Both the position numbers and the translations under genes were made by a program. From the NCBI GenBank assembly GCA_036172245.1, contig JAYWIR010000045.1, positions 124,001 through 188,000 of the forward strand: 64,000 nucleotides of DNA, written 5' to 3'. Under the pieces are notes generated by a model that saw only the letters and a program-made list of their open reading frames with translations, ran no database searches and was not told the DNA's origin. This document shows, piece by piece, positions 4,640-63,460 of the stretch (position 1 is the stretch's first letter; every line of letters starts with the position of its first letter). This DNA is from Raillietiella orientalis. Taxonomy: Eukaryota.

Positions 4640-6224
4640 GCCTAGTGAGTTGATGGCAGATGCTTAGGAACAAGACTCTCTCCCGGTCTACGTTCATACC
4701 CGCAAGGCATGTCGACGTGGTTCCGACCAGCTGCGTGTCACACCATCCACTGTGTGTGACCACGGCCGTGCGACACGCTCGTCGAGGTGCTCGCGTCCTG
4801 GGTGAGTGGAAGACGGGCCAGCTCACCAACGCTGCGATCCCGAGTACACCACCCCATGGACCTTGAGCTGGGACGAGCTGCTGGATGTTCCTTTGGAACA
4901 ACTGAAGTGGTCCCCGGTGCTCATGGACACCCTCATCCTCCCCTTGAAGTAGCAGGAGTCGGCTCTGTTTTGACACCCGGGTGCGCCGGGGCGTTTAATA
5001 AACAAAGAAACATGTGTAGGGCCATAGGCCCTACAACGTCCGGAAGAGTTCGGAACTTGCCGAGGCACCGGCACGCAGGCCGGCGAGGTTTGACTGGGCA
5101 GGGGGGGGGGGAGGCAAACAAAAATAAAAATAAAGAAAAACGCTATTTACAAAAACAAGGAGGGCTGGGGAAGGGATCATTTTCCACTGCAGACCGTCCT
5201 CTACATCCTTTCCAGGATGCCGGCAAGTTCTATCTCTATGCGTCCCAGATGGGGTCATCTTGCTGCCGTCCTCAGGAAGCCCAGGGCGAAGCAGATGGCG
5301 TCCCTATGTTGCTGTCCACCAGTGGCGTTGATCCAGACCGCCACAATCCCACGTAGGCAGCAAAGGGCTGCAAGGGCTGCGGCAGGCGAAAGGGCATTGC
5401 GCACAAAGAGGCGCTTGAACACGGCTCTAATAGCGTTCGTGGGTGCATCAATGGCCGTTGCGAAACGCAACCACAGGAGCCGGAGGGCAACACAGTCAAG
5501 AAGCAGGTGCGGCAGGGATTCCCGTACCCTTCCGGAACAATTATCGACGCTGTTGCTGTTGCACTGGGGTCTCCCGTGCAACACCCGCCGTCATCACTGG
5601 CCGCGGGTGTGTGTGGACCTCAACTGTGTCAGGTGCGTGAAGCGCGAATCCCTCCATCGCCTGTTAGTGGACTGTGTTGCCCCCGGCCCCTCTGGGAATG
5701 CTTTGCCGTGGTCCTGGGAGCCTCCGGAAGCAAATTCAGGGACGCCCTGAAACCCCTCTTCGTTCGCGAAACCCTTCGGCCAGCGGTCTCGCTGGCCACC
5801 CGGTGCTGCCTACACTGGATCGTCGCTGCTTGGGGCAAGGCAACAGGAGGATCCAGCGATAGGAATGCCGTCTACTTCGCAGTCCTTTTCATCAGGATGG
5901 CGACGCGATCGCTCCACCTGGACAGGACTATCCAGCAAGACCTTGCCGGTGTCCTACAGAAGATGGACAGGACTGCCACCAGGAGACAGTGATCCCATCC
6001 CGTACCTCCCAAAGTATATCTATTTTTTTGCTTTTGTTTTTCTTTTTGTTTGTCCCCTCCCCTCTGCTGCTGTGGTGGACCGCTCAGGTCTGGAACCGGT
6101 GCCTCGGCAAGTCTCCATTAAATTATGCGTGGTTGGACCAACCACATAATTTAACCTGGTCCAACCACAGTTCTCGTTATATGTTTATTTTTGAATAAAC
6201 GCCCCGGGAGCACCCGTGTGAAAA
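4640..6224 (+). mobile_element. L1/Tx1-like LINE family A, 3' part, interrupted by a nested inverted copy
   Basis: ORF2 C-terminal knuckle 'LNCVRCVKRESLHRLLVDC' (~5620-5675), stop at 5990-5992, T-rich 3'UTR, AATAAA 6194-6199, hairpin and AAAA at 6221-6224. Clearly homologous to copies at 51766-53190, 54600-55420 and 61771-63460. Confidence 0.85.
4970..5547 (-). mobile_element. 5'-truncated family A copy inserted antisense into another family A copy
   Basis: Minus-strand 'VDNCSGRVRESLPHLLLDCVALRLLW', T-rich UTR, ATTAAA, hairpin and A tail. The host sequence resumes on both sides. Imperfect TSD ctctgtt (4963-4969) / cgctgtt (5548-5554). Confidence 0.8.
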
Positions 6225-6299
6225 TCGAAGTGCTCGCGTCTGGTGAACTGCGCCTCTCGAAGACTGGTTCTCTGAAGAACAGCAATCTTCCCACTGCCG

Positions 6300-34769: not shown

Positions 34770-35040
34770 GGCTGATTGAGTTGCAGTTGGTTTCACTTGA
34801 CGACGGGTCGGCGGCGCCGGCATGATGAAGTATACGACCGAAATCCGCATTTCGCGGTCCGCACTCTGCCAGGGACCTGCCCGCTCAGCTGCAAGCCGGA
34901 GATCTCGGGCAGCAATCAGACTCACCAATCTCTCCCTTCGCTTCTCTCCTTCCGTGTTTCTTCCCGGAACAGACAGAGACTGCTTTTCTGGAAAGCAGTC
35001 TCTGTCTTTCCTTTGGGGAACGGAGCCGTGGAGATGCGAC
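34770..35040 (+). mobile_element. MITE-like element, copy 1 (inverted relative to 35824-36097)
   Basis: About 270 bp that closely match the reverse complement of 35824-36097. Both translate to 'YTTEIRISRSALCQGPARSAASRRSRAAIRLTN'. Starts with the terminal motif ggctgattgagttgca. Confidence 0.75.
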
Positions 35041-35823
35041 GGACCCATAACGCTGGTAACAAACAATTAAAAGGACGATTAAGGGACGACGATTACGACA
35101 GGGATGCTATCATACTGAATGCATTTATGAAGACCTTCCCACATGCGCGGAAGAGTCCAGAGAACTCGCCGGAAGGAACCGTCGCGCCTTCGCTGGACAA
35201 CCGAATCGATTTTGGCGCTCGACTTCTTCCTTTTCCGTAGCCTCAAGTCTCTAGCCTCCAGTTTCCTTGTAATGGGTCTCACACAGGTCATGTAGTTCCT
35301 GGCAACCCGTTATCGGGTCGCCATGCTTTCGCATGTTCCACTCCAGACGCTTCGCATCCCTTTCCCCTCCCTTCACGTGTGCCCAGGGGGGTTTCGAGCT
35401 CCTTCCGGAAAACGAGGCGGCCTCTGGTCAGTGAACCCTCAGGCATTCGAAGATATCAAACGCAAGGGGTGCTCACTCGTCGATGGCTCCTTGACAGCAA
35501 ACGCCCCCGAACTCCAGTCGCGACGGGGTGGTTTTCCCCTGTTCGTCTCCGGTGAAAGGTGAAATTTTCCATCTATCTCGCGACATCCGGGCTTCCTGCT
35601 CCCTGAGCAAGCCCAAGCGAACCTGCTCCGAACGATCACTTCCGCGGCAACAGATGCTAACGAGGAGCTCCACCGCAACGGACCAAGCAACCATCACGGA
35701 CGTTGGTAAATGCGAATCGAGCTTCTCTCGAGGAGAGGTCTTATACTCGCAATGATCAGAGCGAGGAAGTTGGTGGCGACAACTGACTGCAGCGTTGTGA
35801 ATCGAAAATCTCCCGACCGGAGT

Positions 35824-36097
35824 GGTTGATTGAGTTGCATCGCTTCCTTCACGGTTCCGTTCCCCAAAAGAAAGCTTTCCAGAAAGACAGGCTCTGTGTG
35901 TTCCGGGAAGATGCACAGGAGGGGAGAAGCGAAGGAAGCTATTGGTGAGTCTGATTGCTGCCCGAGATCTCCGGCTTGCAGCTGAGCGAGCAGGTCCCTG
36001 GCAGAGTGCGGACCGCGAAATGCGGATTTCGGTCGTATAGTTCATGCCGGCGCCGCCGACCCGTCGTCAAGTGAAACCGATTGCAGCTCGATCAACC
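35824..36097 (-). mobile_element. MITE-like element, copy 2, with its own 16-bp terminal inverted repeats
   Basis: ggttgattgagttgca (35824-35839) versus tgcagctcgatcaacc (36082-36097) is 14/16 complementary. No coding capacity is evident. Confidence 0.75.
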
Positions 36098-37193
36098 CGG
36101 CTCGAGAGACAAACCGCTTCCGTTTACTCAATGTGTGCTGGAGTTGTCATGCGGTGGATAGGCGAAATGGACATCCCGAAAGCTTCCGCGGATTCTCGAA
36201 GCATAGGGTGGCTTCAGGCAGTCGTCTCCCCCCCCCCCTCCCCTTACGCGCCCCAGTGGAAAAATCTCGAAGCAAAGTTTGTGGTTCTACAAAAAAAAAA
36301 AAAAAAAAGGAAAACGAAACAGTGTTAGCTGGAGTTGTCACTTAGCTCTCTCGAGAAAACTATCGGTCTCTCAGGGGGCGTAGTCAGAAGACTTCCTTCT
36401 GAATGGATGGGAAACGGGGCTGCAGATTTGGATCAGGACCGATAAGGACCCTCGAAAGAATGAGTGGGGTCCCACTAGACTTGGACACCGGCGAACAGAA
36501 TCCGAAGTCATTCCACTCAGTTTCGCGGTTTCTTGTGCTGACATGGTCTCTCGTCTTCTCAAAGATTGCTCTGAACAGACTCTAAAATGTGCACCCTCTT
36601 CCCTAAAACCTCCAAGCGGCACTTCAGCGTCGAAGATTGGGACTAAGGAGGCAAGGAAACCTTCTACAGACTGGACCACTTGGTGAACTTTCCTCTTGCC
36701 ATGACCTCGAGCGGTAGCCTCGAACGGGTGGAAGATCGCGTTCACAGCGAGGACTTGACGACCTTTCTGGACCTGAAGTGACTTGTCGCTTCGTGACAGC
36801 CGGATGCCAAAGAGAAGAATTGATACGGCGAGCAGGAGTTTACTGATCATCCGAGGCTTGGATCATCTCCCTGTCCTCCGGCTGCGTCCGCAGAGCACAT
36901 TCGGAAGCGTGAGGAGGCTGGCGACGAGCGACCTCGCCTCTCTGCTGCTGAGAACTCGTGCGGAGGAAGGAACCCTCCATTCTGTCCTCCCTTTGTGCCT
37001 CCCCTCTTCCCACCTGCGAACATCCTCTTTCGACTGGACGGTCGTGCCTCGTAACCTTGTCGACTTTTGACACATGCGACCAACGCAGCCTCCTTCCAGT
37101 TTCTTGTCTTGTGCTGCTGTATGTTGCGACTGACTCGACGATTTTCATCCCAAACATCTTCGGGAACTTGGATGGGCAAAATTGGAATTAGGC

Positions 37194-38076: not shown

Positions 38077-39328
38077 TATGCTGGAGCGGGACGCGGGGGA
38101 AGGTCGAATCCCAGCTGCCCCCGGACTCGTAGGATGCTGTGGCGTTGAGGCTTCAGAGGACAGGGACGAGAAGAACGACCACCTAACAGAAGAGATCAGG
38201 CGGGAAGGAGCGAGGAAAAAGGGAGAGAGGTTCCTTTCTTTCGGTTGCTGGCTGAATGGTGGAGTGTCTCCAGGGCAAAAGGAGCGTCTCCCTTCCTGGG
38301 TTCAGCTTTGGGATCGGTTGGGATGTGGGCACGGACGTAGCGAGATGGATGCTTTCCTTCCCTGGCTCTTTCTGGGTTTTCGGTGCCGAGCAAAGCTCTC
38401 CAAACACATTTTCGTGATCCTAGAAAAATTCCTGGAGCTTTCTAGAGCTTTTGCAAGTCCGCCTAGAGCGTTTGGTCAGGGACTTTGCTTCCTCCTCATC
38501 TCTCATCCTTTTCGTCCGGCAGAACTTTCCTAAATCATAGGCACCAGGCTCTCCAGTTTCAATGTTTTACTGCGGAACTTCTCGGAAGGCTTTCCCGAGA
38601 TGCGCCAGACGAGATGCAATTCCTGGCTGGTGGTCACTCCAGCGGAGCCGCGCGCGGTGCGGCTCTGGCAAGCCACGTTCGCTAAAGAGTGTCTTCTGCT
38701 CGTTTTCGGAGCCGGGATGTCGCCGCCCCCAGTTCGTCCGGGAACAGAAAGGGATCTCGTCCAGAACAGGAGCTCTTCCAATCTGCTCTTCTCTCGCGCT
38801 TGTGAATTCTGGAGGACCGGAAGAAGCATTCCGAAGGTGACCTTGAGCAAGTCCTTGGTCATGTCCCACCCGTCGTGGATCGTTCCCTCCTCCTCCCCCC
38901 TTTTCTCTTGCCTAGACACGAGTGTTCTACGCGGGCCTCGCAGCTACGCAACCGACAGCCGTTTCCCCGCACCGGAGTCTCCAGGTTCAACGTGCTGCTC
39001 TTCGGCAAAAACCGACTGCGTCGACGGGGACCCTACGGGGAGGCGCTCCCCTCCCCTCCTCCTCCTCCTTGTTTTCCTGCCTCCTCTTGTGGAGAACTCG
39101 AGCGTTGAGAAGAGCGACGGCGGGTGCTGGGGGCAACCGATTCCGGTTTCTTCTTCCCCCATCCCCTTCCCTCCGAATTGCGAGCCTCCCTTCTGTCCAG
39201 CCTCTGTTACTCTTCCTCTCTGTACCCGCCAATTCAGGCATCTTTCTTGAGATCACTCCACCAATCTACCCATCTCTTGTGATGCGACGATTCTCGAGTC
39301 AGTTTTTTTCCTCTTTCGTCTGTTGCAG

Positions 39329-39419
39329 GAATCCCGAACGACTTAAATTCCTTTTGGAGGCAGTATCCTTGGCTACTTGGCAGGACCGTGTGCAAATTAA
39401 GGGCATTTGTCGCAGAGAT
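39329..39419 (+). CDS. CapaR: Capa/pyrokinin-type GPCR, coding exon 2 (ECL1 and start of TM3); not in the supplied ORF track
   Basis: Acceptor ttgcag| after a polypyrimidine tract. Reads (G)IPNDLNSFWRQYPWLLGRTVCKLRAFVAE(M). Donor AT|GTAAGT. The 91-nt length matches phase 1 in and phase 2 out. Confidence 0.93.
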
Positions 39420-39736
39420 GTAAGTACCTGTGCTTTCCCTCCAGCGCTCCGATTTCCCCCGGCGAGCTGGAAGGACAATGAGGGCGAGGGGCGGAAGTCT
39501 GCGAGGTGTCCGTGTGTCGTTCGTCCCCGAAGCGGACGCAAGGAGTCAGCGAGGAGGTCACGACCTAGCGCTGGCCCGAGTCTCGCAAGGAACGAGACAT
39601 CCGAAAAGAAGCAGAAAGCGCGACGACCGCCTCCTCCTCTTCTTTTCCTCCTCCTCGCCCCCCTCCCCCGGGCCTTCGCTGAGCCGCAGCAGCAGCAGCC
39701 CGGAGCTCCACTGAGCGCCGGCGGCCCTCTTTCTAG

Positions 39737-40185
39737 GACGTCCTACTCCTCCGTCCTCGTGATTGTGGCTTTCTCCGCGGAGCGCTTCCTGGCCACCTGC
39801 TACCCCCTGCAGTCATACACCATGTCGGGACTGAGGAGGGCCCTGAAGATCATCATGGTGATCTGGCTGACATCCAGCCTCTTCTCTTTGCCGTTCGCCA
39901 TCTACACGGAGATCAACTACGTGGACAGGCCGCTGGGAAGCAAGAAGTACCTCCAGGAGTCCAGCTTCTGCGCTCTCCTCGACGAGAACAAGCCGTACTA
40001 CCTGCCCCTCTACGAGATCAGCGCGTTCGTATTCTTCCTGGTCCCCGTGGTCATCATCACTGCGTTCTACATCCGGATAGCCGCGACGGTGAAGCTGAGC
40101 ATCTCCTCGATGAAGGGGGGCTACGAGTATTCCGTCCACGAATCCAAGCTGAACTCGTCGAAGATCGCCATCATCAGGATGCTCG
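39737..40185 (+). CDS. CapaR: Capa/pyrokinin-type GPCR, coding exon 3 (TM3-TM5, ICL3)
   Basis: Acceptor ttctag|G. Reads TSYSSVLVIVAFSAERFLATCYPL...SFCA...FFLVPVVIITAFYIRI...IIRML. Donor G|GTAAT at 40186. 449 nt, phases 2 and 1. Confidence 0.95.
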
Positions 40186-40695
40186 GTAATCGAGAGATTT
40201 TCGTTTCTTCTTCTTCCCTCTCTCTCCTTTCTTCCTACTGCGTTCTGCCGCGGGCGGTTCTCCGTGGTAGGAGGATTGCACTCCTGCGTCTTCTGGGGCT
40301 TCCTCTCCCTCAGCAGCATTTCCTCCGCGATCGACCCTACTCGAGGTTTTTGGGTCCTTCCGATCGGTGGTTCTCTCTCCTCTCAGCCCCTCCCCCTCGT
40401 CCACCTCTTCTCTTCCTCCCCCAGGCAATGGATCGGGAGGAACTTTTCTGACTGTGCAGGCGATCCTCCCCGGCGGGGGCAGGGGATCTGCCAAGCGACG
40501 TCGGCAGCGGATCGTCATCTACGCTGCGGCAATCCACCGCGCGAGGAGGAGGTAGAGGGAGCCGGTCGGCTCCTGGAGCGGAGGGTGTGCGTCCTTCCTT
40601 CCGAATCCTCCCCAAGATCGGTCTACCTGGAAGAGGAGGAAGAGGGAGGACGGAGGAAGCCCTCCCCCCCCTAACGGCCATTCATTTCGTTCCAG

Positions 40696-41066
40696 CGGCC
40701 GTGGTCATCGCGTTCTTCTTGTGCTGGGCTCCTTTCCACGCGCAGAGGCTGATGTACGTGTACGGAAAGAACGCCGCCAACTTCCGCTACATCAACGAGA
40801 AGCTGTTCCTCATCACTGGGGTGTTTTACTACATCTCGGCAACCATCAATCCCATCCTGTACAACCTGATGTCAGCCAAGTACAGAGACGGCTTCCGCAA
40901 GGTCCTCAGATTAGAAAGGATCCACGAAGGATCGCACCACGCTTCCTTCAGCTATCACAGCAGCCAGGGGGTCCAGAGGAAGAGGAATATCGTCACTTAC
41001 AAGCGTTGGAGACCTCAGAGGACCACGGAGCTGTTCCAGAGCTGCGCTGTCGATACGGAAAACTAG
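40696..41066 (+). CDS. CapaR: Capa/pyrokinin-type GPCR, coding exon 4 (TM6-TM7, C-tail)
   Basis: Acceptor ttccag|CG. Reads AVVIAFFLCWAPFHAQRL (PRXamide-receptor signature) and INPILYNLMSAKYRDGF (NPxxY). TAG at 41064-41066. Confidence 0.95.
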
Positions 41067-43457: not shown

Positions 43458-44900
43458 TGGGTTCGAGTTCCCTCCGCAAGATGACGCTGGCTGGTCTGTG
43501 AGTTTCGGGCGTGGCACTCGTGAAAGCAGCCGGAAACGCCAGGATACTACCCCGTTGAGCAGCCGAGATTTGGAAGTTGACCCTCCGAGGTCTTTCCAGG
43601 AATCAAGGGGACGGTTTCCTTCGGGGTTCTCCTCCGGTTGTGAAAATAAAGCCGTGTCTCTCCCCCATCTCAAGATGGGACCACCATCTTGTACCACGGA
43701 GCTGGTTGATATCTTCCTCGATGGTTGTCTCTCCAGAGTGTTCAGAAGCACGGCTGCTCCCTTCAGGAAGCGACTCTTTGGTGAAATTTGGAAGAGTGAC
43801 TTCGGGGCTCTCTTCAGAGGAGGGAACAGGAAGCGGTTTCTTTCCAGGAAGTCCATTCGGAGAAGAAATTCCAATTCCAGGAGCGGATCCTTTCGTGGTT
43901 CCCTCTGGAGAGAATAAGAAAGAGGAGGTTCCCTTTGGGGTTTCCTCCCAAGTGCAGAGGGAACGGATGCCTTCCTCCAGAGCCTTCCTAGATTCATAGG
44001 GTGGTCCCCTTCCAGAGCACCCTCTAACTTGAAGAATGAACGCGTCTCTCGTGTGGCGTGGACAGTGTTAAAGAGATTCATGAGTCTTCAGGAGCGCGAT
44101 GGTTTTTAAGGTACTCAGCGAGTCCCCTTCTCCGAAGAAAAACGCAAAAAAAACTCTGAAAAAAAAGCTGGAAGGAAAACAGAGAACACAAAAGTCGGGA
44201 ACTGGCTGAAGACTGGGTAGAGGAGGAACTTTGCGTAAAGAGAGAAGGCATCTGATGCTTGGGCAGCATGTCACCGTGTGCCGTGCCATCACAAGAGACC
44301 CACTGCTGGTGGAAACCACCTTTGCTTCCAAAATGCACCCCATCACCCTCACCGAAGCTGAAACTGCATGCAGCGGATCTTCAGAGCTCGGACGAGATCT
44401 CGGTTCTTCGAAGCGCTTGCTGTCCTTCCTCCTTGCCAACAGTCCATTTCTTGCTGAGAGTCGACGAGGATGGTTACTTCGCCTGGAGGAATCTCCCATC
44501 CCGAGTAGGGGGGAATGAAATTTCGCCGAGAAAGTGCTTTGGAGTAGGACGAAGATGGATGTTTTCCTCCGTCGCTCTTCATGGAGCATGAGCAGAGTTC
44601 GTTTTAGCTCGAAAATTTCATTCGCTGACTGCCACAGAAGAAGCACCTGTCCAGTTGACAAGAACGTTTGCTCTTGCAGGTGAACAGCCACAGTTGTGAA
44701 ATCGAAAATCCCATGGGTTTGGTGTCCAAAGGAATTTTGCTGAAGGTCCCGCTTCCGAACCAAACCATAGCTAAAGATTTGTTTTTGCTCGCCTTCACTG
44801 TCCAAGGAATCTTCTCTGTGCCCAGGGTCCAGAGCATTTTTCGTGGGCGGATGCAAGCGATGAGATAGAGACGGAAGAAGAGGTTAAGAAATGGCATCTT
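43458..44900 (-). mobile_element. LINE family C, 3' part plus ~700-bp downstream module B
   Basis: Knuckle relic 'MARHTVTCCP' (~44260-44290), T-rich tract, then module B (44150 down to 43458), which is homologous to 53195-53800 and 57838-58740 (shared 'ccaggaatcaaggggacggtt'). Confidence 0.7.
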
Positions 44901-46870: not shown

Positions 46871-47200
46871 GCTCGTTCCCGAAGCCGTCGAGTTTTCGAA
46901 TTCTGGAGAATTGGGTGCAGCGAAGAACCGGAAATGAAAGAAGAACGCTGCTGCGTCGGACTCGTTTCTTACGGCAGGCGGGCACGTGCGGTTCCACGCT
47001 GAACAGCACACTGAAGACAAGTCAACCACTCAGAGATGGAGTCCAGCCGTTGAGAAATTGGCAAACTACAAATGTTCACGTGAGCTGATATGAAAAGCGC
47101 GAATCGTTTCTAGGAAACAAAGGAAAATATTTCACACGACAGTTTGTAAAGTTGGCACGCACAATCGTGAATACTGCAGCCTGAACGACCATTGGATCAT

Positions 47201-48585
47201 TCTCACCCGGTTATGCCGGAGCATTTATTACGTTAAGTAATAAAAATACATATTTGTGGTAGAACCGTTGGTTCTACCACGCGCAATGAACCTGCCGAAG
47301 AGCTTTGTGCAGACCGGTGAGGTCCGCTTCGGCAGTGTGGAGGAAGAGAGAACACACACAAAAAAATAAACAAACGAAACAGGAGAGGGGAAATCACACA
47401 CGGGGAGGAAGGTGGGTGAGAACCGAGGAAGGTACGCTGCCAGACATCCTGTTTAGGATGTTGACAAGTTCTGTTCGGATAGTGCCCAGGTGGAGCCATC
47501 TCGAGGCGGCCCTCAGGAAGACTCACGCCTAGTGGATGGCGTCCCTGCCATTCTGGCCTCTTCCCGCGTACTAGGCTGACACAATTCCGCGTACACAGCA
47601 CAGAACTTATAGGGACGCGTCTGGAGGCAGAGCGGCACCGCTCACGAAGAGGTGTCCCTGGGTTGCCCACCGGGATACCTAGCATTGTCACGTAGTGACC
47701 CCAAAGGGGTCACAAGGAAGCACAGTCCAACAGCAGGTGCGCGAGGGTTTCCTTCTTCCCGCACCTGTCGCACGTCCACGCTCCCCCCCGTTTGCAGTGG
47801 TGAAGACGCGTTTCACACGGGATTCCCCCATGCAGCACCAGCAGCGCCGACTCCTGCCACTTGTGGGGGAGGATGCCACTGTTCCAGCACGCTGAGGGCC
47901 AATTCACCTTCTCCGGAGGGATGCCAAGCAGCTCTTCCCAGCGCAAAATTCCTCGGGATGGAGCACTCGGGGTCACAGCGTCCGTCACTTCCCGAGTTGT
48001 CCACGCCCCCCGTGGTTTCTCCCTTGCTGCTATGCAGAAAGTCCCCTCCCACCTTACCGGGTTTACACTGTTCATTGCGTCCCTTAGGGAAGGCAGCACG
48101 GGTGGAGGAGAGTATACAAGGCTCATCGCATATGCTGTGGGTTGCAGACGATCTCCTCCAACGACATGCGAGTGATGACGCCTCGCTGCAGGCAGGCATA
48201 CCCCGCCTCGCTCGCGCCGTGGATCTTTCCCCAGGCGAAGACCGACTCCTGAGGCCAGGCATTGCAGTTCGCTGGAAGGCAGGAGATCCAGGTGTTTTCC
48301 TCCACCAGGGCAACCATCTGGAGGAGTTGGTATCCTCAGAGCCTTAGCAATCTCTCGCTAGCGACGAGGAGGGATGTGAGTCCTTCGCAACCGGTTGCGC
48401 TCTTCGCGAGGAGCCGTGCTGGTGCGCACCAGGGCGTGGTCCATAGTCTCGCCACGAGGGCGAGTCTTCTAATTGGTCGATGCTCCCCTCTACCCCGGCT
48501 TGTCTGATCAACAAATGGCGCGCGTAGATTGCCGCGCACATCTCGATGACCAGATTGGTGCTTCCGTTCGGCGCACCTGACAGCA
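47201..48585 (-). mobile_element. L1/Tx1-like LINE, 3' part (divergent relative of family A)
   Basis: 'VLHGGIPCETRLHH...WTCDRCGKKETLAHLLLDC', T-rich UTR, 11-bp hairpin, AATAAA and terminal hairpin at 47201-47280. Confidence 0.8.
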
Positions 48586-48588
48586 AAG

Positions 48589-49400
48589 TTTTCCACCCGG
48601 TCATGCCGGGGAGTTTATTTTATAAAAAATAAACCAGAAAGAAAAGAAGAAAAGGAAAGGGTTCACCGGCACACAGGCCGGGATAACAGAGAGTCCGGAA
48701 CGGGGGAGGAACAAGAGAACAAAAATAAACAAAATGGGTGGGAAGGGGCAGAGATCTTTGGTTTCGCTCCATATTCACCGGGATAAAAACGAAAAGCACC
48801 AAGAAAGTAACAGAGCAAATGTAAGTGGGAAATATGAAAAAAAAAATAAAGGGAGAGAGGGGACAAGTATCACCAGGTCTGCCGTCCCAAACCGTCCATC
48901 AAGCGGCGATGGATGCCGGTTCTTTCCTCCTCGATTTCCTCTTCCAGGTGAGGCCAGCTCTCAGCCGTGTTGTTGTAGGTGACTACCAGCCTGGACTACC
49001 ATCCACCTTTGCTGCGTAGTCATTTGAAGCACCTAATGTCGGGCCCCAGCCATGGCATAGATGCAACCCATGGTTGCTATCATCGCACCTGTCGAGAGGC
49101 CTCTTGGCGCAAAGAACCGCCGCAGCATGTCTCGGACGGTGTCCACCCCATGCAGGAGTGTTGTTGCAGCCTCCGCCACAGTTCTTGGAGGGCATCGCAG
49201 TCCAGAAGCAGGTGCGGCGGATCGACTTCGCCGACCCGCACCTTTCACAATTCGGGGGTGCAGGCCCTCCGGCAACTCGGTGCTGTCGCTCATTACACTG
49301 GAATGGCCAGTGGATGAACAGCAGCACGTCCTGTTTCCAAGAAGGGGGAACAACGAGCCAAGAGGAACCACAAGTTCTTCAGAGGCAACATTCAGAAGTC
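48589..49400 (-). mobile_element. L1/Tx1-like LINE, 3' part (another divergent copy, abutting the previous one)
   Basis: 'FQCNERQHR...PNCERCGS...HLLLDC', T-rich UTR, and AATAAA-ctc-cccgg-catga-ccggg-tggaaaa at the end. Confidence 0.8.
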
Positions 49401-50299: not shown

Positions 50300-50902
50300 G
50301 TTCATCAGCAGGTAGGGGAGCGATTGGATCTCCCTGCGCCTGGGAGACTCCGTAGACGTGGTGTATGAGCTCGTTTCAGGGAAGACCGCAATGCAAGAAC
50401 AGCACAACGTCGTGTTTCTGCCGGAGAGAGCACAGAAGAATCAAACACACGGGAGGGACAGAGAGAGTTGCCTTTAAAAGGCAGAGAGTGCTCTCGACCC
50501 GTTCCAAGGTGGCAAGTTCGTCTTGGACTCTGTGTGGCACCTTCGTCGTCCCCTCTTTTTTGTTTGTCCACCCCCTTACTCGGCCAAGCTCCAGGTGCGA
50601 CGCATGTTCAGGAACCGATCCAGGCGAACAGTGATCCCTTCACTTCCCTCCCTTCCCCTGAAAACATCTCCCCTCCCCCTCTTTTTTTTTTTTTCTTTCC
50701 ATTCTTTCTGTTTATTTTTGTTTTGTCTTTCCATTCCCCTTCGCCGTCGGAGAGGACCTCACCGGTCTGTGTACCGGTTGATGGCAAGTCTCCCGAGCGT
50801 GGTAGCACCAAGTGTTCCACCACGAAAACATTCGGACGACTTTATCATGGAATTTTTGTGTACAAAAATTCTCATAATAAATGGCCCGGCATATCCGGGT
50901 GA
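50300..50902 (+). mobile_element. LINE 3' end
   Basis: 'cagtgatccctt' stop context (~50628), T-rich UTR, AATAAA 50876-50881 and a cccgg-catat-ccggg hairpin. Confidence 0.7.
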
Positions 50903-51765: not shown

Positions 51766-53190
51766 TTTATCACCCAGACACGCCGGGACGTTTATCATTA
51801 AAAAATAATAAACATACATGTGTAGGACCGTCGGCCCTACACGTCCAAAAATGTTCAGTGTCCTTTCCAGGATGCTGGCAGTTTCCATCCGTGTATGTCC
51901 CAGGTGAGGCCATCCTGCTGACGTCCGCAGGAAGTGTAGGGCAAAGCAGATGGCGTCCCTATCCTGCTGTCCTCCTTTCGCGTATCTCCAGATCGCCACA
52001 ATCCCTCTTAGGCCGTTCCTCGACACGGTTCTACGCCACCCGAGGGTGGATAATTCTTCAAAATAGGTGTTACTCCGGGAGGGCTCCATCCTATGGATCC
52101 AGGAAGGTCTCGGATCCCGTTCCTCTCACGCCTGGAGAGGGATTCCTGGAAATGGAATCACCTCCACCCTGGTTGTCTCCGAAAGGGAATCCAGAAGGAT
52201 CGAGAAGGCAGCAAAGAGCTGCTAGGGATGCGACAGACGAAAGGGCATTGAGCACGAAGAGGAGCTTGAAAACGTCTCTGGGTTGGCCCGTTTGTGCACC
52301 TAGGGCCGTTGCGTAACGCAACCAGAATGACCGGAGGGTAGCACGGTCTACAAGAAGATGCGAGAGAAATTCCCGTTCCCCGCATCTGCAACAGTTGAGG
52401 TCCACAGCCCCCCAGGTCCAGTGAGACCGGCGGGCGTTGCACAGGGGACCGCAGTACAACAGCAGAAGTGCTGACTCCTTCCACTTGAGGGGGAGGACCT
52501 GATTGCTCTTCAGCAACTGGGGGCCACTCGATGTCTTTCTGTGAGATTTCCAGCAGCTCACCCCAGCGCAATAGTCTTTTCGGTGGGGCACTTCGGTTCG
52601 CAACGTCCGTGAACCTGTCCATGGTTCAATCATCTAAGCTCTTCGTGTTCTGACTGATTTCGCAACCGACCTCTCATTTGGCCGGCTGGTTACTGACCAG
52701 GTGCTCCCTGAGGGTAGGCAGTGCCGTGGTCGGAGAGGTTCTTTGCGTCCACGCACACTGGTGGGCTGCATGATGACGTCCTTCAGCGAGCAGTTGTAGA
52801 AGGAGTGCAGCAGTCGCTGCCTCATCTCCAGGTTCTCTTCGTTAATCTTGACCCACGTGCGAACGGTTTCCTGCACCCAGGCACTACCGTTCGCTAGCCG
52901 GCAGAAGATGCGGTTGTTGGTCCTGGTCAGCGTGGCCACTCTCTGGAGCTCCAGTCTGCAGCTGGACACGTTGCGTCTGCGCCGCCGCGCCAGGAACGAA
53001 GACAGTACCGCGTAGCCGGCGGCTGGCTCGACCAGGTATCTTGCAGACTCGCACCGATTCGTGCTCCAAAGCTACGCCAATAGGGCAAGCGTCCTCCACT
53101 GGAGCTCGAAGAAATCTTCGAGCGCCGAGTCTGGAGTCGACATAGGAGCAGCAGCAGAAGATCGTCCGCATACACTGAGACGGCAGGTGT
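51766..53190 (-). mobile_element. Family A LINE copy retaining the RT catalytic motif
   Basis: Minus-strand 'YADDL' (~53158-53172), 'CKIPG' (KILG-like), knuckle 'NCCRCGEREFLSHLLVD', 3'UTR and terminal hairpin. Confidence 0.85.
52015..52205 (+). mobile_element. Module B fragment inserted into the family A copy
   Basis: Matches 53200-53345 ('ccctggttgtctcc'). It interrupts family A sequence that is contiguous at 5335-5365. Confidence 0.7.
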
Positions 53191-54599
53191 GTCTACAACT
53201 TAGGAAGTTATACGGAAAGAAACCACCATGTGGATTCAGGAAGGGCACCAGAGAAAGGAGTCTGTTCCCTTTTCGCTTGGGAGCGAACCCCGAAGGGAAT
53301 ACTCCTTTGCCCTGGTTGTCTCCAAAAGAAATTCCAAAGCGAACCTCTCGCTTGTTCTCTTCAGAGGTATCTATTAGAAGGGGCCACTCTCTCGTTTCTT
53401 CTCTGGAGGGAACCTGAAAGAGAACCGCTCCCTGTCTTCCTCTAAAGAGAATTCCGAGGGGACGCTACCCAATTTCACCGAAGGTTTCTCTCTGAAGGGA
53501 GCACAGCACTTAACACTGTGGAAAGGCAACTCCCGAGGAAGGTATCAACCAGCTCCGTAGCACAAGATGACGGTCCCACATTGAGGTTAGGGGGGGGGGG
53601 GATACAGCTCCATTTGCACAACCGGAGGAGAACCCCTGAGGAAACCGTCCCCTTGATTCCTGGAAGGCCCCTGGAGAGTTGACTTCTGATCCCTTCCTCT
53701 CAACAGGGGCATCCGGCTTCCAGCTTCCATCAGTGCTGCACCGAAAGCCTGTAGGGCAGCCAGCATTATCCGGCAAAAGAGATTCGAAATTCACCATTTC
53801 TCGACGCCGACCCTTCCCCGGCTGGGATTCGAACCCTTAACGCTCGGCAGGTAGAAAAAATGTGAAGGATGCGCGAAATCTTTCCTTCCCTTTGGAATTT
53901 TTTGTACTCCAAGAATTCCCTTTTGTGTGTATTTTCAAAGCTGGACGGAAAAACTTCCAAATGGTTAGGAGGAAAAATCTCGACTTCCTGATTTTCTTGG
54001 ATCCTGTTCGTCTTGGACGATGGCCCGATGGTGCGCCAAATGCATGTCCGTGCCCGTCCTGTATGCTAGCAATCGTTTCACGTGTTCCGCACGCATGCCA
54101 GGAATCTCTTCCAGCATCTTGTCATTCCTCGGATGTTAGGTCTTCAGGAATACGACAACTAGAGCTCTCACAGACCACGGCACACCTTCGGCGGAGCAAG
54201 AGAAACGCCGGTTCCTGATTACTTATGCGCCTTCTATCTTCATGATCCTTCGAGAACCGCTGCCTTGTTCTCGCAGGTCAAGGAACACCGATCTGGATGA
54301 CGTGACCCTATCCATGGGGAACCAGGCTCGATCCAAGTCCTTGGTCAACCCCCCACGCCGATCCACTCCAAGAACGAAACCTGCTACTTCCAGTTTTTCC
54401 ATCAGATCCTGTTCGGGATGCTCCTAAGCATGACGCCTCTCCCCTTAGTACGAAGTGCTGGAAGAAAAGCACTCCTTCAGAAGTTCCCTCGACCGATGAA
54501 GGATCAGTAGAGCTTTCCAAACGGAGGCCACGAACACCCGCGTGTCGCAATTGCTGCTCCTACCTACACATTAATTCCTTTCACTGGCTATACCACTTC

Positions 54600-55420
54600 A
54601 CGATGGACCACGAGGACTCGTGCTACATCGACTGAGCTTTGAGCGTCGAAAACTCAAGGTTTTCGGTCTCTGCACGAGTCATTCATCACCATTGTCATCC
54701 ACATCGTCGTACACATAATCGACATAGCTCCCTTCTCTCTCCAGTTGGTCCAAGGCAAGGCACCATCGAGCATGATGACCCCTCGGTGCTCATGGACACC
54801 CGCACCCTCCCCTTGAAGTTGCAAGAGTTGATGTTGCTGCTGCTGCTCAGGAGTCACTCGTACGCCGCCCGCCGGCATCACTGGACGCAGGAATGTGTGG
54901 ACCCAAACTGTGTCAGGTGCGAGAGCGTGAATCCCTCCCCCACCTGTGGACTGTTGTGCCCTTCGGTCCCTTTGAGGACTCTTTGCTGCGGCCCTTGGAA
55001 CCCCCGGAGGCAACGCTAGAGACATTTTCAAGCGTCTCTTCCTACGAGATGTCCTCACGATGGTCACATCCCTAGCAGCACTACGCGAGATCGTGGCTGC
55101 ATAGAACAAGGCAACAAGGGGACCCAGCGATAGGTGCCATCTATTTCGCTGTTCGCTTCATGAGATGGCAACGCAATGGCCCCACCTGGACAGGATTATC
55201 CAGCAAGACCTTGCCGGCATCCAACAGAGGATGCACAGGACTGCCACCAGCAGACAGTGATCCCTTCCCGTACCTCCCAAAGTATATTTATTTTTATTTT
55301 TGCTTTCTTTTTTTCTTTTTGTATTCCTCCTTCCCTCTGCTGCCGTGGTGGACCGCGCCGGTCTGCGAACCAGTGACCCGGTAGTCCTCCCTTAAATTTT
55401 GCTTGAGTGGATAACGACAG
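54600..55420 (+). mobile_element. Family A LINE 3' part
   Basis: 'LPLKLQE...RRHHWTQECVDPNCVRCES', 'cagacagtgatccc' and a T-rich UTR homologous to 5560-6130. Confidence 0.85.
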
Positions 55421-56339
55421 AGGTGTTTCGCGGTTGCCTCTTCGAGTGCGACTCGGTGTCGCTGACAGCTTCCCTTGCAGCTCCGTGCTGCCTTCGTGAG
55501 ATTGGGGCGGCAAGCCGCGCCGAAAGAGGCCAGTCGAACGGTGAGTTCGTCCCGATCGCCTGCTTCTTCATGAGAAAAGCGACAAGGTGGCCACATCCCT
55601 GCCAACGAGAGGAAGAAGGAGACAGGACCCGAGTTCTCCTGGGGGGTACACACCGAGCAGATCGCTCAACCGAAGGAGTCCCTTTGCTCGGAGATGAGGA
55701 GTGGCGGCGTTCACCAATTCGTTCTCCATGCAGTCGTCAATGAGTTTCTCGACTCCTGCAAAGGAGGAAGTTACCAGCATTTTCCAGAGGATGCTGAGGA
55801 CTCCAAGGAGAGATCTGTGTGATCCCTTTCCTTCCCTCCCCAACACATTTCTAAACGGAACTTTCGTGTTTTTTTTTTTTTTTTGGTTTATCCTTCCCCT
55901 CACTTCTGTGAGAGCCTCGTCGGGGCAGCTGCTTACGAGAAGCAGTGCCTCCGAGGCATTTACCTTCGTAGTGGTCACGTGAAATCTAGAAGAAACGAAG
56001 ATACGAAGAAAGGCATTTCTGTATTGTATATGACTGTTTTCTCCTGTGAGTGTTTTGTACAATAAACGTCCCGGCATGGCTGGGTAAGGATGCTTAATGA
56101 TTCAAGGTGACAATGATAGATCAGACCTTTTGTTTTCTTCTCGCGGTCACGAGCATCGGGACGGGCACATCTGACTCGGCGAGCATGGACCCGGCTCGTC
56201 CTTGCGACGAACAGCAAGTGGTCTACAGCAGAAAAGAAACAGCATCTTTGCGAGAAGCGGCAAAGGGATCAGCAACGCTAAAGTCAGCAACCGCGGCTGC
56301 GAGTTCAGAATCGCAGTCGGCGGGTAGCGCTCTTCTTTG

Positions 56340-57000: not shown

Positions 57001-57837
57001 CTTATTTCTTTCCATTCTGTGAATAGCAGTCAAACCGCTCCACCTGGGAAGCATGCAGATGGAGCTCGCCAGCATCTTCGGATGGATGCCGAGGACGCTT
57101 CAGAGAAGACAGCGATCCTTTCTCTAAACTACCAAATTTTCTGCATTCATTTCGATCCAATCCTGTTGGTTTCGTTTTTGTTTTCCTATTCGCTTTCTTC
57201 CCCTCCCCTTCACTTCTCCTAGAGGCCGAGGCGACCCTCCCCGGTATGCGCACCGAGACCTTGACAGGTTTCTTGCGTAGATGGGAGTGATAGGACAACG
57301 TGACCTACCACACTAGGTTTGTATGTTTTCCTCAAAGAACGGCCTGACAGCCACTGGCAAACCTGTCCAGTGGCTTCTAGGATAGGGACATCTAAACTGG
57401 AAACCTTCCCGCTTGACCGTAGGCCTGCTGTCGGGACTCCGGCGACGTGGCAAGGGGCAGGAACATCTCCGACGGTGATGCACAAGGACGCAAATGCACT
57501 TGAAAGCGAGGATCCCAAGATCTCACGGCGAGTTTCGCAACTCGCGTGCATCCTCGCATCAGAATTCTTTCTGATGACCTTCCCTTTTCCAAACCGCCGC
57601 ATCACGTCCCGAGCAGAGCCACTCCCAGAGGCTTCCCATGACGATGGACTCATCTCCGAGCAGCGAGGGACAGCGCTTAGCCTCTCCCCGGTCTTTCACA
57701 ACCGTCTCCTGTTTTTTCGCACCTACCCCAGAAACGAGCAGGAGATTTCTGCCAACTCTTCCCTCCTCCTTCCTTCCCCGAAAAGCCTGATGTTCCGATT
57801 CTCGCGCCGGACCAAGTCCGGCGGTTGGCGTGTCGTC

Positions 57838-60150
57838 GGTTTCGAGTTCCCTCCTCAAGATGACGCTGGCTGGTCCATGGAGTTCGGGTGCAGCACTGGT
57901 TTTTCACCCGGGTTCGCCGAAGTGTTTATTTAAGATAAATAAACACAATTTCTGTGGCTGGACCACAGGCCCAACCACGTCTTTTCCGTAGATACCCTGC
58001 CGTGATACCGGTTTGCAGACCGGTGAGGACCACAATGGCAGCAGAGGGTAGGAGCCAAGCAAAAAGAAAAACAAATGAAACAAAAATGAAACAATTTTGG
58101 GGTGTTAGAGAAGGGATCACAGCCTGCTGGGGGCGATCCTCTGCATCCTTGGAGGATGCTGGCAAGGTCACGTTTCTCCACCGAGTGAGGCACTGGTAGA
58201 ATGCCTCCGTTGAGTGGCAGGAATTTGGAAATTGACCCTCTAGGGTCCTTCTAGGAATCAAGGGGACGGTTCCCTTCGTGGTTACCCTCCGCTTGTGAAA
58301 ATGGGGCCGTGACTCTCGTCAGGTTGGGACCGCCATCTCGTGCCATGGAGCTGGTCGATACTACCCTTGGGAAGTTGCCTCTCCAGAGTGTGAAGAAGCG
58401 CTCCGCTCCCTTCGGGGAGAGCCCTTCAGAAAAATTAGGAAGCGTCTTTTCGGGGTTCTCTTCAGAGGAGGAGGAAATAGGGAAAGGGTCCTTTCCAGGT
58501 GGTCCATTCAGGAAAGAAATTCTAGGAGCAGATCCTTTCGTGGTTCCCTTCGGAAAGGAAATAATGGAGCGGTTCTCAACAGGAGGTCCCTTCGGAGAGA
58601 ATACGAAAGACGTTCCCCTTCGGGATTCATTCTCAAGTGCAGAGGAAACAGACTCCTTCCTCCGGATCTTCCTGGATTCATAAGGTGGTCCCCAACCGGG
58701 GTGCCTCTTAACTTGAAGAGTAACACCCACAAGTTCTGTAACCTTTTGCCCCATCCCACGTGGCAGCATGCAGCGCTGGTCTTCCTGCCCTCATGGACTT
58801 TCCCTTGCAGCGAGCGCCACCACCCGCCGGTAGAAGAGAAGACGTGTCCCTGAAGTGGGCCAGGTGCAGAGAAGCAGGAACGTTCCCGTGCCTGTCTGCG
58901 GGCTGCGGTGACCTCCAGCGCGTTTGGGGACGACGCCTGGAGGCTGTCCTGCTTCGTCCTGAAAGCTCCTTGCCCCCTAAAGAGCTGCGCCACGTACGAG
59001 GGACCTTCGCCCGCCTCTTTGCTCGCGCTTCTTGCATCTAGCCAGGAGGAGCCGCTGCACGTGAATGAAACGCCAGCAGTGGACGGTGGGGACCCGGAAC
59101 TTCGCTCCGCTGGCGGAAGGGAGCGTGGCCCAAGCGGCTCACTAAAGACAGGGAGCGAAGGGGGGGAAGCTGCCCCCAGCAACGTGCGCGGTCTGGAGAA
59201 GACCCGACGAGCTCGATCGATGTCCTCTTGCCCCTTTTCCTTTATTTCCTTCCGATCTGCACCACCCACGTCACCCCGCCGTCCCCGTCTTCGAACCCGC
59301 GAGTCCACAGTCCATTCCTCCTTCTCAAGTCTTCGTGCTGCACTGGAGCCAGCTTCCTACACAGGGTGTTCCCTTTTGTTTGGAGGGTGATGTGCACTGG
59401 AGCGGCGTCTGGAAGTCGACGGTCAAGACTCCGCCTCGCGGTCCACGCTGCAAGGAAGAGAGAACTCAGCGCTTTTGTATTCCCTGCGTTACAGGCGCTT
59501 CTCACCTTTAGATCGTTGCATCTCCCAAGCGCTCTTCACGAACAATCTCAGGGGAGGCTGGAAGCCGCTAGGGGATTTTCGTGCATCCGGAGCACCCTCT
59601 CGGGAATGTTCGCTGCACCAAAGTATCAGTTTCCTCTCCGCTAGTATTTCTGCCAGTTCTCGGAGCGTCCTCTTCTTCATCACCGCAGGGCTTATTCTAA
59701 TCCGAAGATGATCCCCTGGATCCCTTGAGCTGACGCGGAGGAATGCGCTGACGTCGGCCAAACCGGGACTACGAGTGAGACGAAGATCCCACGGCGGTCG
59801 CCGATGAGGACGCGGCGACTGTCGAAGCCGGAGGTCTATAGGAGCGCGCTCCTCGGATCTCCTGGACGCTCTACGTGCGCTCAATGCAAACTCGGGAGCA
59901 GCATCCCGAGCCCGGTGCGAAAGGATTCCGAGAGGATGCACTGCCTCTTTCCTCTAGCCACACCAGAGAGCCCGCGTCCTTCGCTGCAAACGCGGCTCTC
60001 TGCTATTTTGAAGAAAGCTGAGACGGGGCTGAAAACCTGCGAGTCCACAGTCCACTCCTTCTCGGAGTCTCTGTGCTGCGTTGGAACCAGCTTCCTACAC
60101 GGGGTGTTCCCTTTTCTTTGGAGGGCGACATGCCCTGGAGAGGGGTCAGA
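57838..60150 (-). mobile_element. LINE family C relic (RT pieces, knuckle) with module B
   Basis: Minus strand: 'ITLQTKGN' RT-start relic (duplicated at 59299-59403 and 60040-60140), 'ALEV...RSCFS..GHVF' knuckle relic (~58830-58925), then module B from 58740 down to 57838. Confidence 0.6.
57901..58189 (-). mobile_element. Severely 5'-truncated family A-like LINE insertion with a perfect TSD
   Basis: Flanked by GCACTGGT at 57893-57900 and 58190-58197. Contains only the ORF end, T-rich UTR, AATAAA, hairpin and A tail. The host module B is contiguous at 43510-43590. Confidence 0.9.
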
Positions 60151-60223: not shown

Positions 60224-60257
<34 letters not shown>

Positions 60258-61770: not shown

Positions 61771-63460
61771 TTTTTACCCTGGTTCTCCGGGTCATTTATT
61801 CCAGAAACAAACAAATAACGAGAACTGTGGTTGGACCATTGGACCAACCACACACAATTCAATGGAGACCTTCCGGGCCACTGGTTTGCAATTAGCGCGA
61901 ACCACCACGGCAGCAAAGGGGAGGGGACAAACAAAAAGAAAAAATAAATTAACAAAAAATAAAAATAAATACACTTTGAGGCTGAGGGAAGGGATCATTG
62001 TCAGCTGGTGGCAGTCCTGTCCATCCTCTTTAGGATGTCGGCAAGGTCTTGCTGCATGCTATTTTCCAGGCAGGACATCGCATTGCTATCCTGATGAAAA
62101 GGACGGCGAAGTGGATGGCATCCCTATCGCTGGATTCTCCCGTTGCTTTGCTTTAAGTAGCGACGATCCCGAGTAGGCAGCCCAGGGCTGCCAGCGAGGC
62201 CTCCGGCGTCGCGAACGAAGAAGGGTTTCAAAGCATCTCTGGAGTTGCCTCCGCGAGTCCCAGGGTCACGTCAAAGCGCTCTCACAGGGACCGGAGGGCA
62301 ACACAGTCCACTAGCAGGTGGGGAAGGATTCATGTTCCCCGCACCTGACACAGTTGGGGTCCACACTCCCCAGCGTCCAGTGATGCCGGTGGGCGTTGCA
62401 CGGGAGATCCCCGAGCAGCACCAACAGGACGCCGACTCCTGCCACTTCAAGGGGAGCGTGCGGATGTCCACGAGCACAGAAGACCACTTCAGATGTTCCA
62501 AAGGAACAGCCAGTAGCTCTCCCTAGCGCAAGAGTCCGTGGATGATGTCCTCGGGGTCGCAGCGTCGGTAAGCTGGCCCGTCTGCCACTCACCAGTCCTT
62601 TCTCCCTTTCGGAGATGTTCCCTTTCACAGCGCTGCGGTGAGGAAAGTTCTTCCTGCCCACGTGCTTTCTGAGATCCTCCAGGATCTCTCGGGCTGTTGC
62701 GCGCGAACAGGAACCGGCTCACCTGTTCCGTACGTTGCTCCTCGCCCGCGAACAGTTTCCTGTAACCAGGCACTACCGTTCGCAGGGCGGTAGGAGATCC
62801 ATCCCTCGTTCTCCCTTGTTAACTTGTCCACTCGCCAAAGCTGCAATCCCAGCGGCAGATGTGACGGCGACGGAGTGCAACAAAGGACGCAAGCCCCACG
62901 TTGCCGGTGGCTTGTTCGACGAGGAGGCGTGCAGGGTCGCATCAGGTGGTGCTCCAGAGCTTCGCCGCAAGGGCAAGTATCCTCAACTAGAGCTGAGGCT
63001 CCAGCCTCTCCAACGTCAGGAAGATGAGGCGGCCATCACGACGCAGAGCGCACAAGTCCTTCAATCGGACTCGGGATCTCCTTTTGCTCCAAAAAGCGAT
63101 CCTCAGGAGGTCCTTGGTCCACTTTTTTATCTACTGGATCGGGGAGCAAACAAAGGGCAGAGGGCGGAAGAAGAGGATGCTTCACACAGCGGCCCGTTCC
63201 TGCAGTTCAAACCTGCCTCCCTGGAACGGGCCTAGAGATGTCCGCTTTGAAGATGAGCTCCTGCAGCTGGACCTCCGGTTTGCTCTTGACGGTTTGCTGG
63301 AGAGGACTTCCCCCGGTCTGGTGCACGAGCAAGGTGCGCTCGTGCACTAGACCAGGAAAAAAGGTGCTTTTCCAGAAGAACTCGGGAAGATTCTCTTGGC
63401 AGTCGCAAGCCCGCATCTCCAACCGCCTCAACACCTACCCCAGAGGGAAGAGTTGAGGGG
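61771..63460 (-). mobile_element. Family A LINE, ~1.7-kb 3' part
   Basis: 'LPEFFWK...LLVHQTGG' (post-RT FxW..GG), 'LPLKWQES', 'VDPNCVRCGEHESF', 3'UTR nearly identical to 5990-6224, AATAAA, hairpin and A5 tail. Confidence 0.85.

Follow-up and report, generated by a model that had tools for sequence, protein, structure and literature searches.

Structured 3′ ends carrying a built-in poly(A) signal in diverged LINE copies of a Raillietiella orientalis contig

We analysed a 64,000-nt stretch of the Raillietiella orientalis genome (GenBank assembly GCA_036172245.1, contig JAYWIR010000045.1, positions 124,001 to 188,000 of the forward strand), referred to below as the window and numbered from its first letter. 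The window contains the ends of nine copies of a long interspersed nuclear element (LINE) family: e47206, which is the focus of this work, e4976, e6195, e48596, e50877, e51773, e56062, e57907 and e61777. At all nine sites we found the same terminal module, consisting of a poly(A) signal hexamer, 3 nt, a short hairpin of the form YYCGG-loop-CYGGG (hairpin C) and the dinucleotide TG or TA. The initial annotation had described this module, with a CCGGG-like 3′ arm, at nine ends and had noted a stem mismatch at those near 6194 and 61771 (here e6195 and e61777); both observations held. Upstream of the module we distinguish hairpins A, B and D and a long-range stem E.

In the focus copy the module occupies 47204..47229 on the minus strand and reads AATAAA (47229-47224), TGC, TCCGG (47220-47216), the loop CATAA, CCGGG (47210-47206) and TG (47205-47204). 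The hexamer is AATAAA in seven of the nine copies, ATTAAA in one (4999, minus strand) and GATAAA in one (51796, minus strand). It is separated from hairpin C by exactly 3 nt in 9/9, the loop of hairpin C is 5 nt long in 8/9, and the dinucleotide that follows is TG in seven copies and TA in two. Two further minus-strand modules have hairpin C followed by TG, namely those of e4976 (4974..4999, with ATTAAA) and e48596 (48594..48619, with AATAAA; this copy has hairpins A and D and no B). The remaining minus-strand modules carry small changes in the hairpin: e51773 (51771..51796; GATAAA, one G-U pair, TG), e57907 (57905..57930; AATAAA, two U-G pairs, TG) and e61777 (61775..61800; AATAAA, one G.A mismatch, TA). 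On the plus strand, all with AATAAA, lie the modules of e50877 (50876..50901; TG), e56062 (56061..56086; TA) and e6195 (6194..6219; TG), the last with an altered hairpin C that pairs in a shifted register, CGGG-AGCA-CCCG. A search for the pattern WTAAANNNYYCGGNNNNNCCGRR returned 8 matches with at most one mismatch, against 0.17 expected, and 13 with at most two, against 2.57 expected; none of 100 shuffles reached 13. Four further matches at up to two mismatches (13093+, 17904+, 27890-, 41883-) lie outside any LINE context. Because eight occurrences stand against 0.17 expected, we conclude that the terminal motif is not due to chance.

The copies are 5′-truncated remnants of non-LTR (long terminal repeat) retrotransposons flanked by target-site duplications (TSDs), with lengths from 289 nt to >1.4 kb. 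The element of e6195 spans 4798-6224 (+) and is bounded by mapped TSDs at 4782-4797 and 6225-6240, TCGA[G/A]GTGCTCGCGTC, which are identical at 15/16 positions and share an exact core 11-mer at 4787-4797 and 6230-6240. Nested within it is e4976 (~4964-5549, minus strand), delimited by collinearity with the copy at 61777. The 289-nt e57907 (57901-58189, minus strand) is inserted in another repeat between 8-bp TSDs, GCACTGGT, at 57893-57900 and 58190-58197 (+), and a different copy of the host repeat preserves the corresponding empty site, uninterrupted, near 43521. This host, the unclassified repeat X, occurs three times (43459-43981, 57838-58666 and, inverted, 53248-53686; 78-88% identical), and its copy at 57.8-58.7 kb, by hosting e57907, supplies the empty-site control. 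A candidate 13-bp TSD with one mismatch flanks e61777, and the TSD search for e47206, e48596, e50877, e51773, e56062 and e4976 gave nothing convincing. The copy e56062, ~690 nt long, is a separate insertion; it cuts off one more, partial copy at 55326..55395 (+), of which an ORF2 end, a T-rich tract and the hairpin A region are left. With the others e56062 has in common the hexamer-plus-C module alone; the remainder of its 3′ untranslated region (3′UTR) is unrelated, without A or B. One additional, strongly decayed 3′UTR copy, at 57199..57341 (+), retains a B stem with two unpaired cells (a cell being one base pair in one sequence) and no recognisable module C.

Coding remnants agree with this assignment. 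The C-terminal remnant of ORF2 at 47713..48357 (minus strand) matches zf-RVT (PF13966; E 1e-7, 33 bits, cut-off 27.5), the sole element-related Pfam match among the 26 open reading frames (ORFs) in that scan. A zinc knuckle of the form C..CG..E..HLL.DC is visible by eye in the translations of several other copies, as is a YADD-like motif upstream of the e51773 copy. Pfam RVT_1 was not found in 26 + 57 + 140 ORFs at E ≤0.01, nor in 18 ORFs at E ≤10; the 57 further ORFs had no Pfam family at E ≤0.01, and the 140 more yielded one weak unrelated match and no retroelement. No reverse transcriptase (RT) or endonuclease domain was recoverable within the window, and the missing RT domain is expected, since the copies are truncated and decayed. 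Pairs of copies are 65-77% identical by BLAST, and the columns of the last 165 nt average 47% identity, which places the copies in several diverged lineages. Given the TSDs, the empty site, the 5′ truncation and the zf-RVT match, we conclude that the nine sites are best explained as 3′ ends of 5′-truncated copies from several diverged lineages of one LINE family, in keeping with their first description as retrotransposon ends. An assignment to L1/Tx1 is a plausible lead suggested by one Pfam zinc-knuckle match.

Hairpin C folds in all nine copies, with free energies of -5.9 to -9.9 kcal/mol. In a gap-poor alignment of all nine modules, 43/45 of its cells are paired, five of them as G-U, and two are unpaired; 5/7 non-Watson-Crick stem cells are thus sense-strand G-U wobbles. 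Identity is 0.88 and 0.84 in the two arms and 0.93 in the hexamer, as compared with 0.40 in the loop and 0.46 in the spacer. Hairpins B and C together contain 8 G-U cells, read on the sense strand, and 2 A-C cells, the latter confined to the most decayed copies. Since G-U cells outnumber A-C cells 8 to 2, the pairing points to a role in the sense RNA rather than in DNA or the antisense strand.

Hairpin B is perfect at the two upstream positions where the initial annotation had seen perfect stems: 47256..47280 (minus strand) in e47206, where GTGGTAGAACC-AAC-GGTTCTACCAC forms 11 bp, and 5015..5035 (minus strand) in e4976, where TGTAGGGCC-TAT-GGCCCTACA forms 9 bp. It is also perfect, with 11 bp and an 18-nt loop insertion, in e6195 (6129..6168, +). 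In e57907 (57954..57978, minus strand) two of the 11 bp are G-U, and in e61777 (61827..61851, minus strand) one of the 11 positions is a T.T mismatch. The hairpin of e51773 (51820..51842, minus strand) has 10 bp with G-U pairing; one complete base pair of the 11-bp form is deleted. That of e50877 (50799..50823, +) is degraded, with three unpaired cells. Three stem types can be told apart, GTGGTAGAACC, GTGGTTGGNCC and (G)TGTAGGGCC, the last with one whole base pair deleted. The distance from hairpin B to the hexamer varies from ~15 to ~53 nt (26 nt in e47206), a wider range than the 15-30 nt at first proposed.

We scored hairpin B on eight sequences, one of them a decayed extra copy. Of 86 cells, 93.0% are paired; both sides have changed in 4/11 pairs (6 cells) and five pairs are invariant. 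Among 500 shuffles, which take the copies as unrelated and which give counts rather than probabilities, the observed value was reached by 3 for percent paired, 8 for pairs changed on both sides, 1 for cells changed on both sides and 9 for the covariation score; for a fifth measure, further pair types, 122 of 500 reached it. Identity in the arms is 0.78-0.79, as compared with 0.39 in the loop and 0.39-0.45 in the flanks, so that in B, as in C, the loop is not as conserved as the stem, a comparison that the initial annotation had singled out. We conclude that hairpin B shows genuine covariation.

In 7/9 copies the hexamer is itself paired, a feature absent from the initial annotation. In hairpin D the hexamer and the base that follows it pair with U-rich sequence, most often GUUUAUU; in e47206 this hairpin lies at 47224..47244 (minus strand) and has an AU-rich 8-bp stem, UUUAUUAC / GUAAUAAA. 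We compared the ensemble pairing probability of the hexamer, copy by copy, with that in composition-preserving shuffles of the 45 nt upstream (300 per copy). The nine values are 0.95, 0.29, 0.94, 1.00, 0.76, 1.00, 0.65, 1.00 and 0.97, that is, at least 0.76 in seven copies, as against shuffle means of 0.23-0.56. In six copies at most 2.3% of the shuffles reach the observed value, and for e47206 (0.95) none of the 300 does. Hairpin D adjoins hairpin C without a gap in several copies.

When six of the nine copies were given to RNAalifold with no structure supplied, it predicted a stem E (UGCCG/CGGCA) enclosing hairpin A (ACCGGU-N6-ACCGGU), followed by B and then C. In e47206 stem E is a long-range helix of 9 bp at 47292..47335 (minus strand), CTGCCGAAG / CTTCGGCAG; inside it lies the region which in other copies folds into hairpin A (ACCGGT-N6-ACCGGT), whose 3′ arm e47206 has lost. 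We regard A and E as conserved sequence with possible structure. The terminal 127-nt RNAs fold better than shuffles in eight of the nine copies (z from -2.30 to -4.78), the other being e56062 (z = +0.25). The bipartite, two-hairpin signal proposed in the initial annotation is incomplete, since there are more than two hairpins and D pairs the hexamer itself.

Several smaller features accompany these structures. An alternative small hairpin, GGACC-N5-GGTCT, occurs at 47315-47327 (minus strand), with equivalents at 6080-6095 (+) and 55348-55362 (+); it overlaps the 5′ arm of A, is mutually exclusive with it and is intact where A is broken. Words containing CCGG recur in hairpins A and C (4970-5100, minus strand; 6093-6219, +). 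For two copies, the fold of minimum energy brings the A and C regions together in a long-range pairing that closes the whole 3′UTR and may represent an alternative conformation.

Hairpin C stands at the very end of the element, 2 nt before the terminal A run in 9/9 copies, and the hexamer lies ~20 nt before the element end. Where TSDs map the end precisely, it falls 7 nt after hairpin C in e6195 (GTGAAAA) and 6-7 nt after it in e57907 (TGAAAA(A)). In none of the nine copies does the A run after TG or TA exceed 5 nt. Longer homopolymers, of 13-27 nt, are still present in the window, including T13 and T16 runs inside the 3′UTRs of e50877 and e56062. Because such runs survive inside the same copies, we conclude that the short A tails are intrinsic and not due to decay.

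Elsewhere in the window there are A runs of 17-27 nt, at 22720-22736, 28263-28282, 30657-30682, 36291-36308 and 60227-60253 (minus strand). Some of these may mark other retroposons whose tails are true poly(A), in contrast to the 4-5 A residues of the family described here.

The searches for relatives described here found none outside the window. A covariance model of B, D and C, run over the window with filters off, found no new copy; it recovered 8/9 copies at E 1.4e-5 or better and e56062 at E 0.083, and its remaining rows were antisense readings of B or had E >0.01. Rfam gave no match at the gathering threshold in the whole window, and its best sub-threshold matches at 47150-47400 were to unrelated families (E 0.57-3.4). 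A metagenome scan with AATAAANNNCCCGGNNNNNCCGGGTG returned 49 loci, none of which had LINE context (a T-rich tract, hairpin B) in the upstream 110 nt; many of them end in T runs resembling bacterial terminators. At the protein level, a profile of five natural ORF fragments had no match in a word-indexed search or in PDB, and the nearest neighbours in the ESM Atlas were clusters of zf-RVT type, which we take as a lead only.

How a LINE RT chooses its template, by structure (the stringent mode) or by poly(A) (the relaxed mode), is a live question. Stem-loop 3′ tails are established for L2, CR1, RTE, R1 and R2 elements (PMC5135761; PMC3747384), and in stringent LINEs the ORF2 protein binds its cognate 3′ stem-loop (PMC4176376). 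SART1, of the R1 clade, combines an essential 3′UTR stem-loop with a poly(A) end (PMC3747384). The initial annotation had confined structured tails to L2, CR1 and RTE, which is out of date: within the L1 clade, hairpin tails with compensatory mutations have been described in a monocot lineage from maize and sorghum (Ohshima 2012, PMC3472496), and in the green alga Chlamydomonas L1-1_CR and SINEX-3_CR share a tail between a LINE and a short interspersed nuclear element (SINE) (Ohshima 2013, PMC3747384). These cases were read as stringent recognition inside a clade usually called relaxed (PMC3472496, PMC3747384). In work on human L1 and Alu templates, a stem-loop in the 3′UTR has been suggested (PMC5135761). 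A long poly(A) tract is required by human L1, whose 3′UTR is stated to lack a comparable stem-loop (PMC10830416). A solved structure shows human ORF2p on a template of hairpin plus poly(A), with ~15 nt of single-stranded A bound; the C-terminal segment of the protein, including the zinc-knuckle region, holds the stem of the template hairpin and may set the initiation site of target-primed reverse transcription (PMC10830416). The principle of hairpin-type LINE 3′ tails is thus already known, including in the L1 clade.

We favour, with a probability of roughly 0.55, the reading that the ends described here are stringent-type RT-recognition 3′ tails that also hold the poly(A) signal. The sense-strand 3′UTR RNA would fold, from 5′ to 3′, into a tentatively placed stem E enclosing A, then B (9-11 bp), D and C, followed by UG or UA and a very short A run, with the hexamer forming the 3′ arm of the AU-rich hairpin D and the 5-bp GC hairpin C directly adjoining it. 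The hexamer would direct cleavage and polyadenylation ~20 nt downstream, just 3′ of hairpin C, so that the mature RNA would end with hairpin C and then its tail. The ORF2 protein would recognise the structured tail, with C as a constant core and B as a lineage-specific helper, and target-primed reverse transcription would start within the first few A residues, which would explain why new copies carry only ~4-5 A. In this scheme it is the cleavage position, the binding of protein and the initiation site that we infer.

The resemblance to known stringent tails is consistent with this proposal. Like the L2-clade elements UnaL2 and ZfL2, and like SART1, the family has a stem-loop at its extreme 3′ end with a conserved stem and a more variable loop, and it shares with stringent-type tails the lineage-specific variants and the short, defined tail (PMC4176376, PMC3747384). 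It differs from them in showing no sequence or Rfam similarity and no TGTAA-type repeat tail, and in having a built-in hexamer that lies between two helices and takes part in one; recognition here is putative. As in the maize/sorghum and Chlamydomonas cases, a possible member of the L1 superfamily, to judge by its zf-RVT knuckle, bears a 3′-terminal hairpin (PMC3472496, PMC3747384). In maize and sorghum the stem carries compensatory mutations (PMC3472496); in this family such changes occur in B and not in C. Unlike those plant and algal elements, it resides in a different type of host genome (a rhodopsin-family G protein-coupled receptor gene lies in the window), it has several hairpins and a tail of 4-5 A, and its membership of L1 is a lead only. 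Human L1 and Alu templates likewise have a hairpin upstream of an A tract (PMC10830416); in the window family, by contrast, the hairpin stands 2 nt from an A run of 4-5 nt. What distinguishes the family is a hexamer that is built in, paired and invariantly spaced, together with an A tail of only a few residues and a module that appears portable. A keyword search of an open-access subset of the literature did not find the arrangement of a built-in paired hexamer with a very short tail, which may still be published.

A number of observations weigh against the recognition-tail reading. The sample is 9-11 related copies, all inside one 64-kb window. Hairpin B is missing in 2/9 copies (48596-, 56062+) and degraded in e50877 and is therefore not obligatory; the claim of the initial annotation that the upstream stem keeps its pairing is sustained by the compensatory changes in 4/11 pairs. 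Slid controls for hairpin B, in which the partner column was shifted by 1-3, gave 28-47% paired and 0-1 pairs changed on both sides, but the structure of B and parts of the alignments derive from the same sequences that were later scored, which favours B over such controls, and the shuffle control likewise takes no account of relatedness between copies. In hairpin C, scored on nine sequences, there is a compensatory change in 0/5 pairs, so that the covariation check suggested at the outset comes out in favour of B and not of C, and the conservation of C could be sequence-specific rather than structural. Hairpin D is not formed in e4976 (hexamer pairing probability 0.29), and its 5′ arm sits in differing registers, such that column-wise scoring failed and D was judged copy by copy against shuffles. 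Stems A and E have an unfavourable covariation term (+0.69) and many broken cells. The most closely related pair, e6195 and e61777, shares AAAA(A)TCGAAG after hairpin C (6218-6230; 61776-61765, minus strand), and TCGAAG may be a non-A end specific to this subfamily or a target microhomology used for priming. Finally, the 215-aa ORF2 remnant has no relative among 1.8 billion protein representatives and none in a word-indexed search, and nhmmer and the covariance model found LINE copies only, and no partner SINE sharing the tail, in the 64-kb window.

The most serious alternative, which we regard as unlikely, is that the hairpins serve 3′-end formation or RNA fate and not RT recognition. Hairpin C would then act as a structured spacer of fixed length, or stand in for a downstream element, giving a defined cleavage without reliance on flanking sequence, while D would tune access to the hexamer and B would stabilise the RNA. 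This fits the hexamer variants, which are the usual poly(A) variants, and the invariant spacing, in which 3 nt, a 15-nt hairpin and UG place the end ~20 nt after the hexamer. It fits equally the pairing of the hexamer in 7/9 copies and the retention of the module in e56062, where the rest of the UTR is replaced. Processing alone leaves unexplained, however, why insertions carry 4-5 A while longer homopolymers persist nearby, and the lineage-specific covariation of B resembles the cognate-tail specificity of stringent LINEs, as described in PMC4176376. Note that functions in 3′ processing and in RT recognition are not mutually exclusive.

It is improbable that the ends have no function, being leftovers of common descent with stems that are chance palindromes. 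That all copies are related and number only 9-11, that C lacks compensatory change and that A and E are conserved without covarying would suit such an account. Against it, conservation of the arms is double that of loop, spacer and flanks (0.84-0.88 vs 0.40-0.46 for C; 0.78-0.79 vs 0.39-0.45 for B), B shows two-sided change in 4/11 pairs and the loss of an entire pair, the wobble bias favours the sense strand, and 8/9 copies fold with z of -2.3 to -4.8. A DNA-level signal, in which the palindromes are protein-binding or cruciform sites for, e.g., insertion targeting or silencing, is very improbable. In its favour, the palindromes that contain CCGG (ACCGGT, CCCGG/CCGGG) read alike on both DNA strands, seven ends cluster within 15 kb and several insertions are nested. 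Against it, B has altered its sequence and stayed complementary, as no binder specific for a DNA sequence would allow; there are 8 G-U cells as against 2 A-C cells; a fixed position at the end of the transcript suits a role in RNA; and the mapped target sites lack the motif. Three known RNA elements, the histone-type 3′ stem-loop, the ENE-type triple-helix clamp, for which a U-rich internal loop is lacking, and the RNA polymerase III terminator, were rejected by inspection against their definitions.

Returning to the recognition tail, we offer tentatively, and hold to be rather doubtful, a narrower proposal in which D and C form one compact terminal domain that acts both as a ruler for the cleavage site and as a dock positioning the active site of the RT at the first few A residues. 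If it were true, an L1-like element in an animal-type genome would here possess a natural intermediate between stringent template selection, which reads structure, and relaxed selection, which reads poly(A). The hexamer-plus-C module appears portable between otherwise unrelated 3′UTRs, to judge from e56062. A family with a canonical poly(A) signal whose insertions yet carry 4-5 A after a hairpin would offer a useful natural case for the transition between modes, and it could help to show how hairpins are read by the zinc-knuckle segment at the C-terminus. For the present, the finding is a well-documented example of a known principle in a lineage without database relatives.

The window has other features. 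Two adjacent open frames at 38916-41063 (+) are the two halves of the rhodopsin-family receptor mentioned above (7tm_1, E 2e-18 and 5e-9), which is either a frameshifted or an intron-split gene; its ORF had no relative in a word-indexed search of 5.8 billion proteins. A large inverted repeat at 34770-36097, with arms of ~190 nt + 56 nt that are 89-91% complementary and ~870 nt apart, looks like a foldback or terminal-inverted-repeat-type element. Direct repeats separated by 0.7-1.1 kb and sharing 84% identity form two local pairs, at 12684-12809 / 13829-13954 and at 59328-59409 / 60066-60147.

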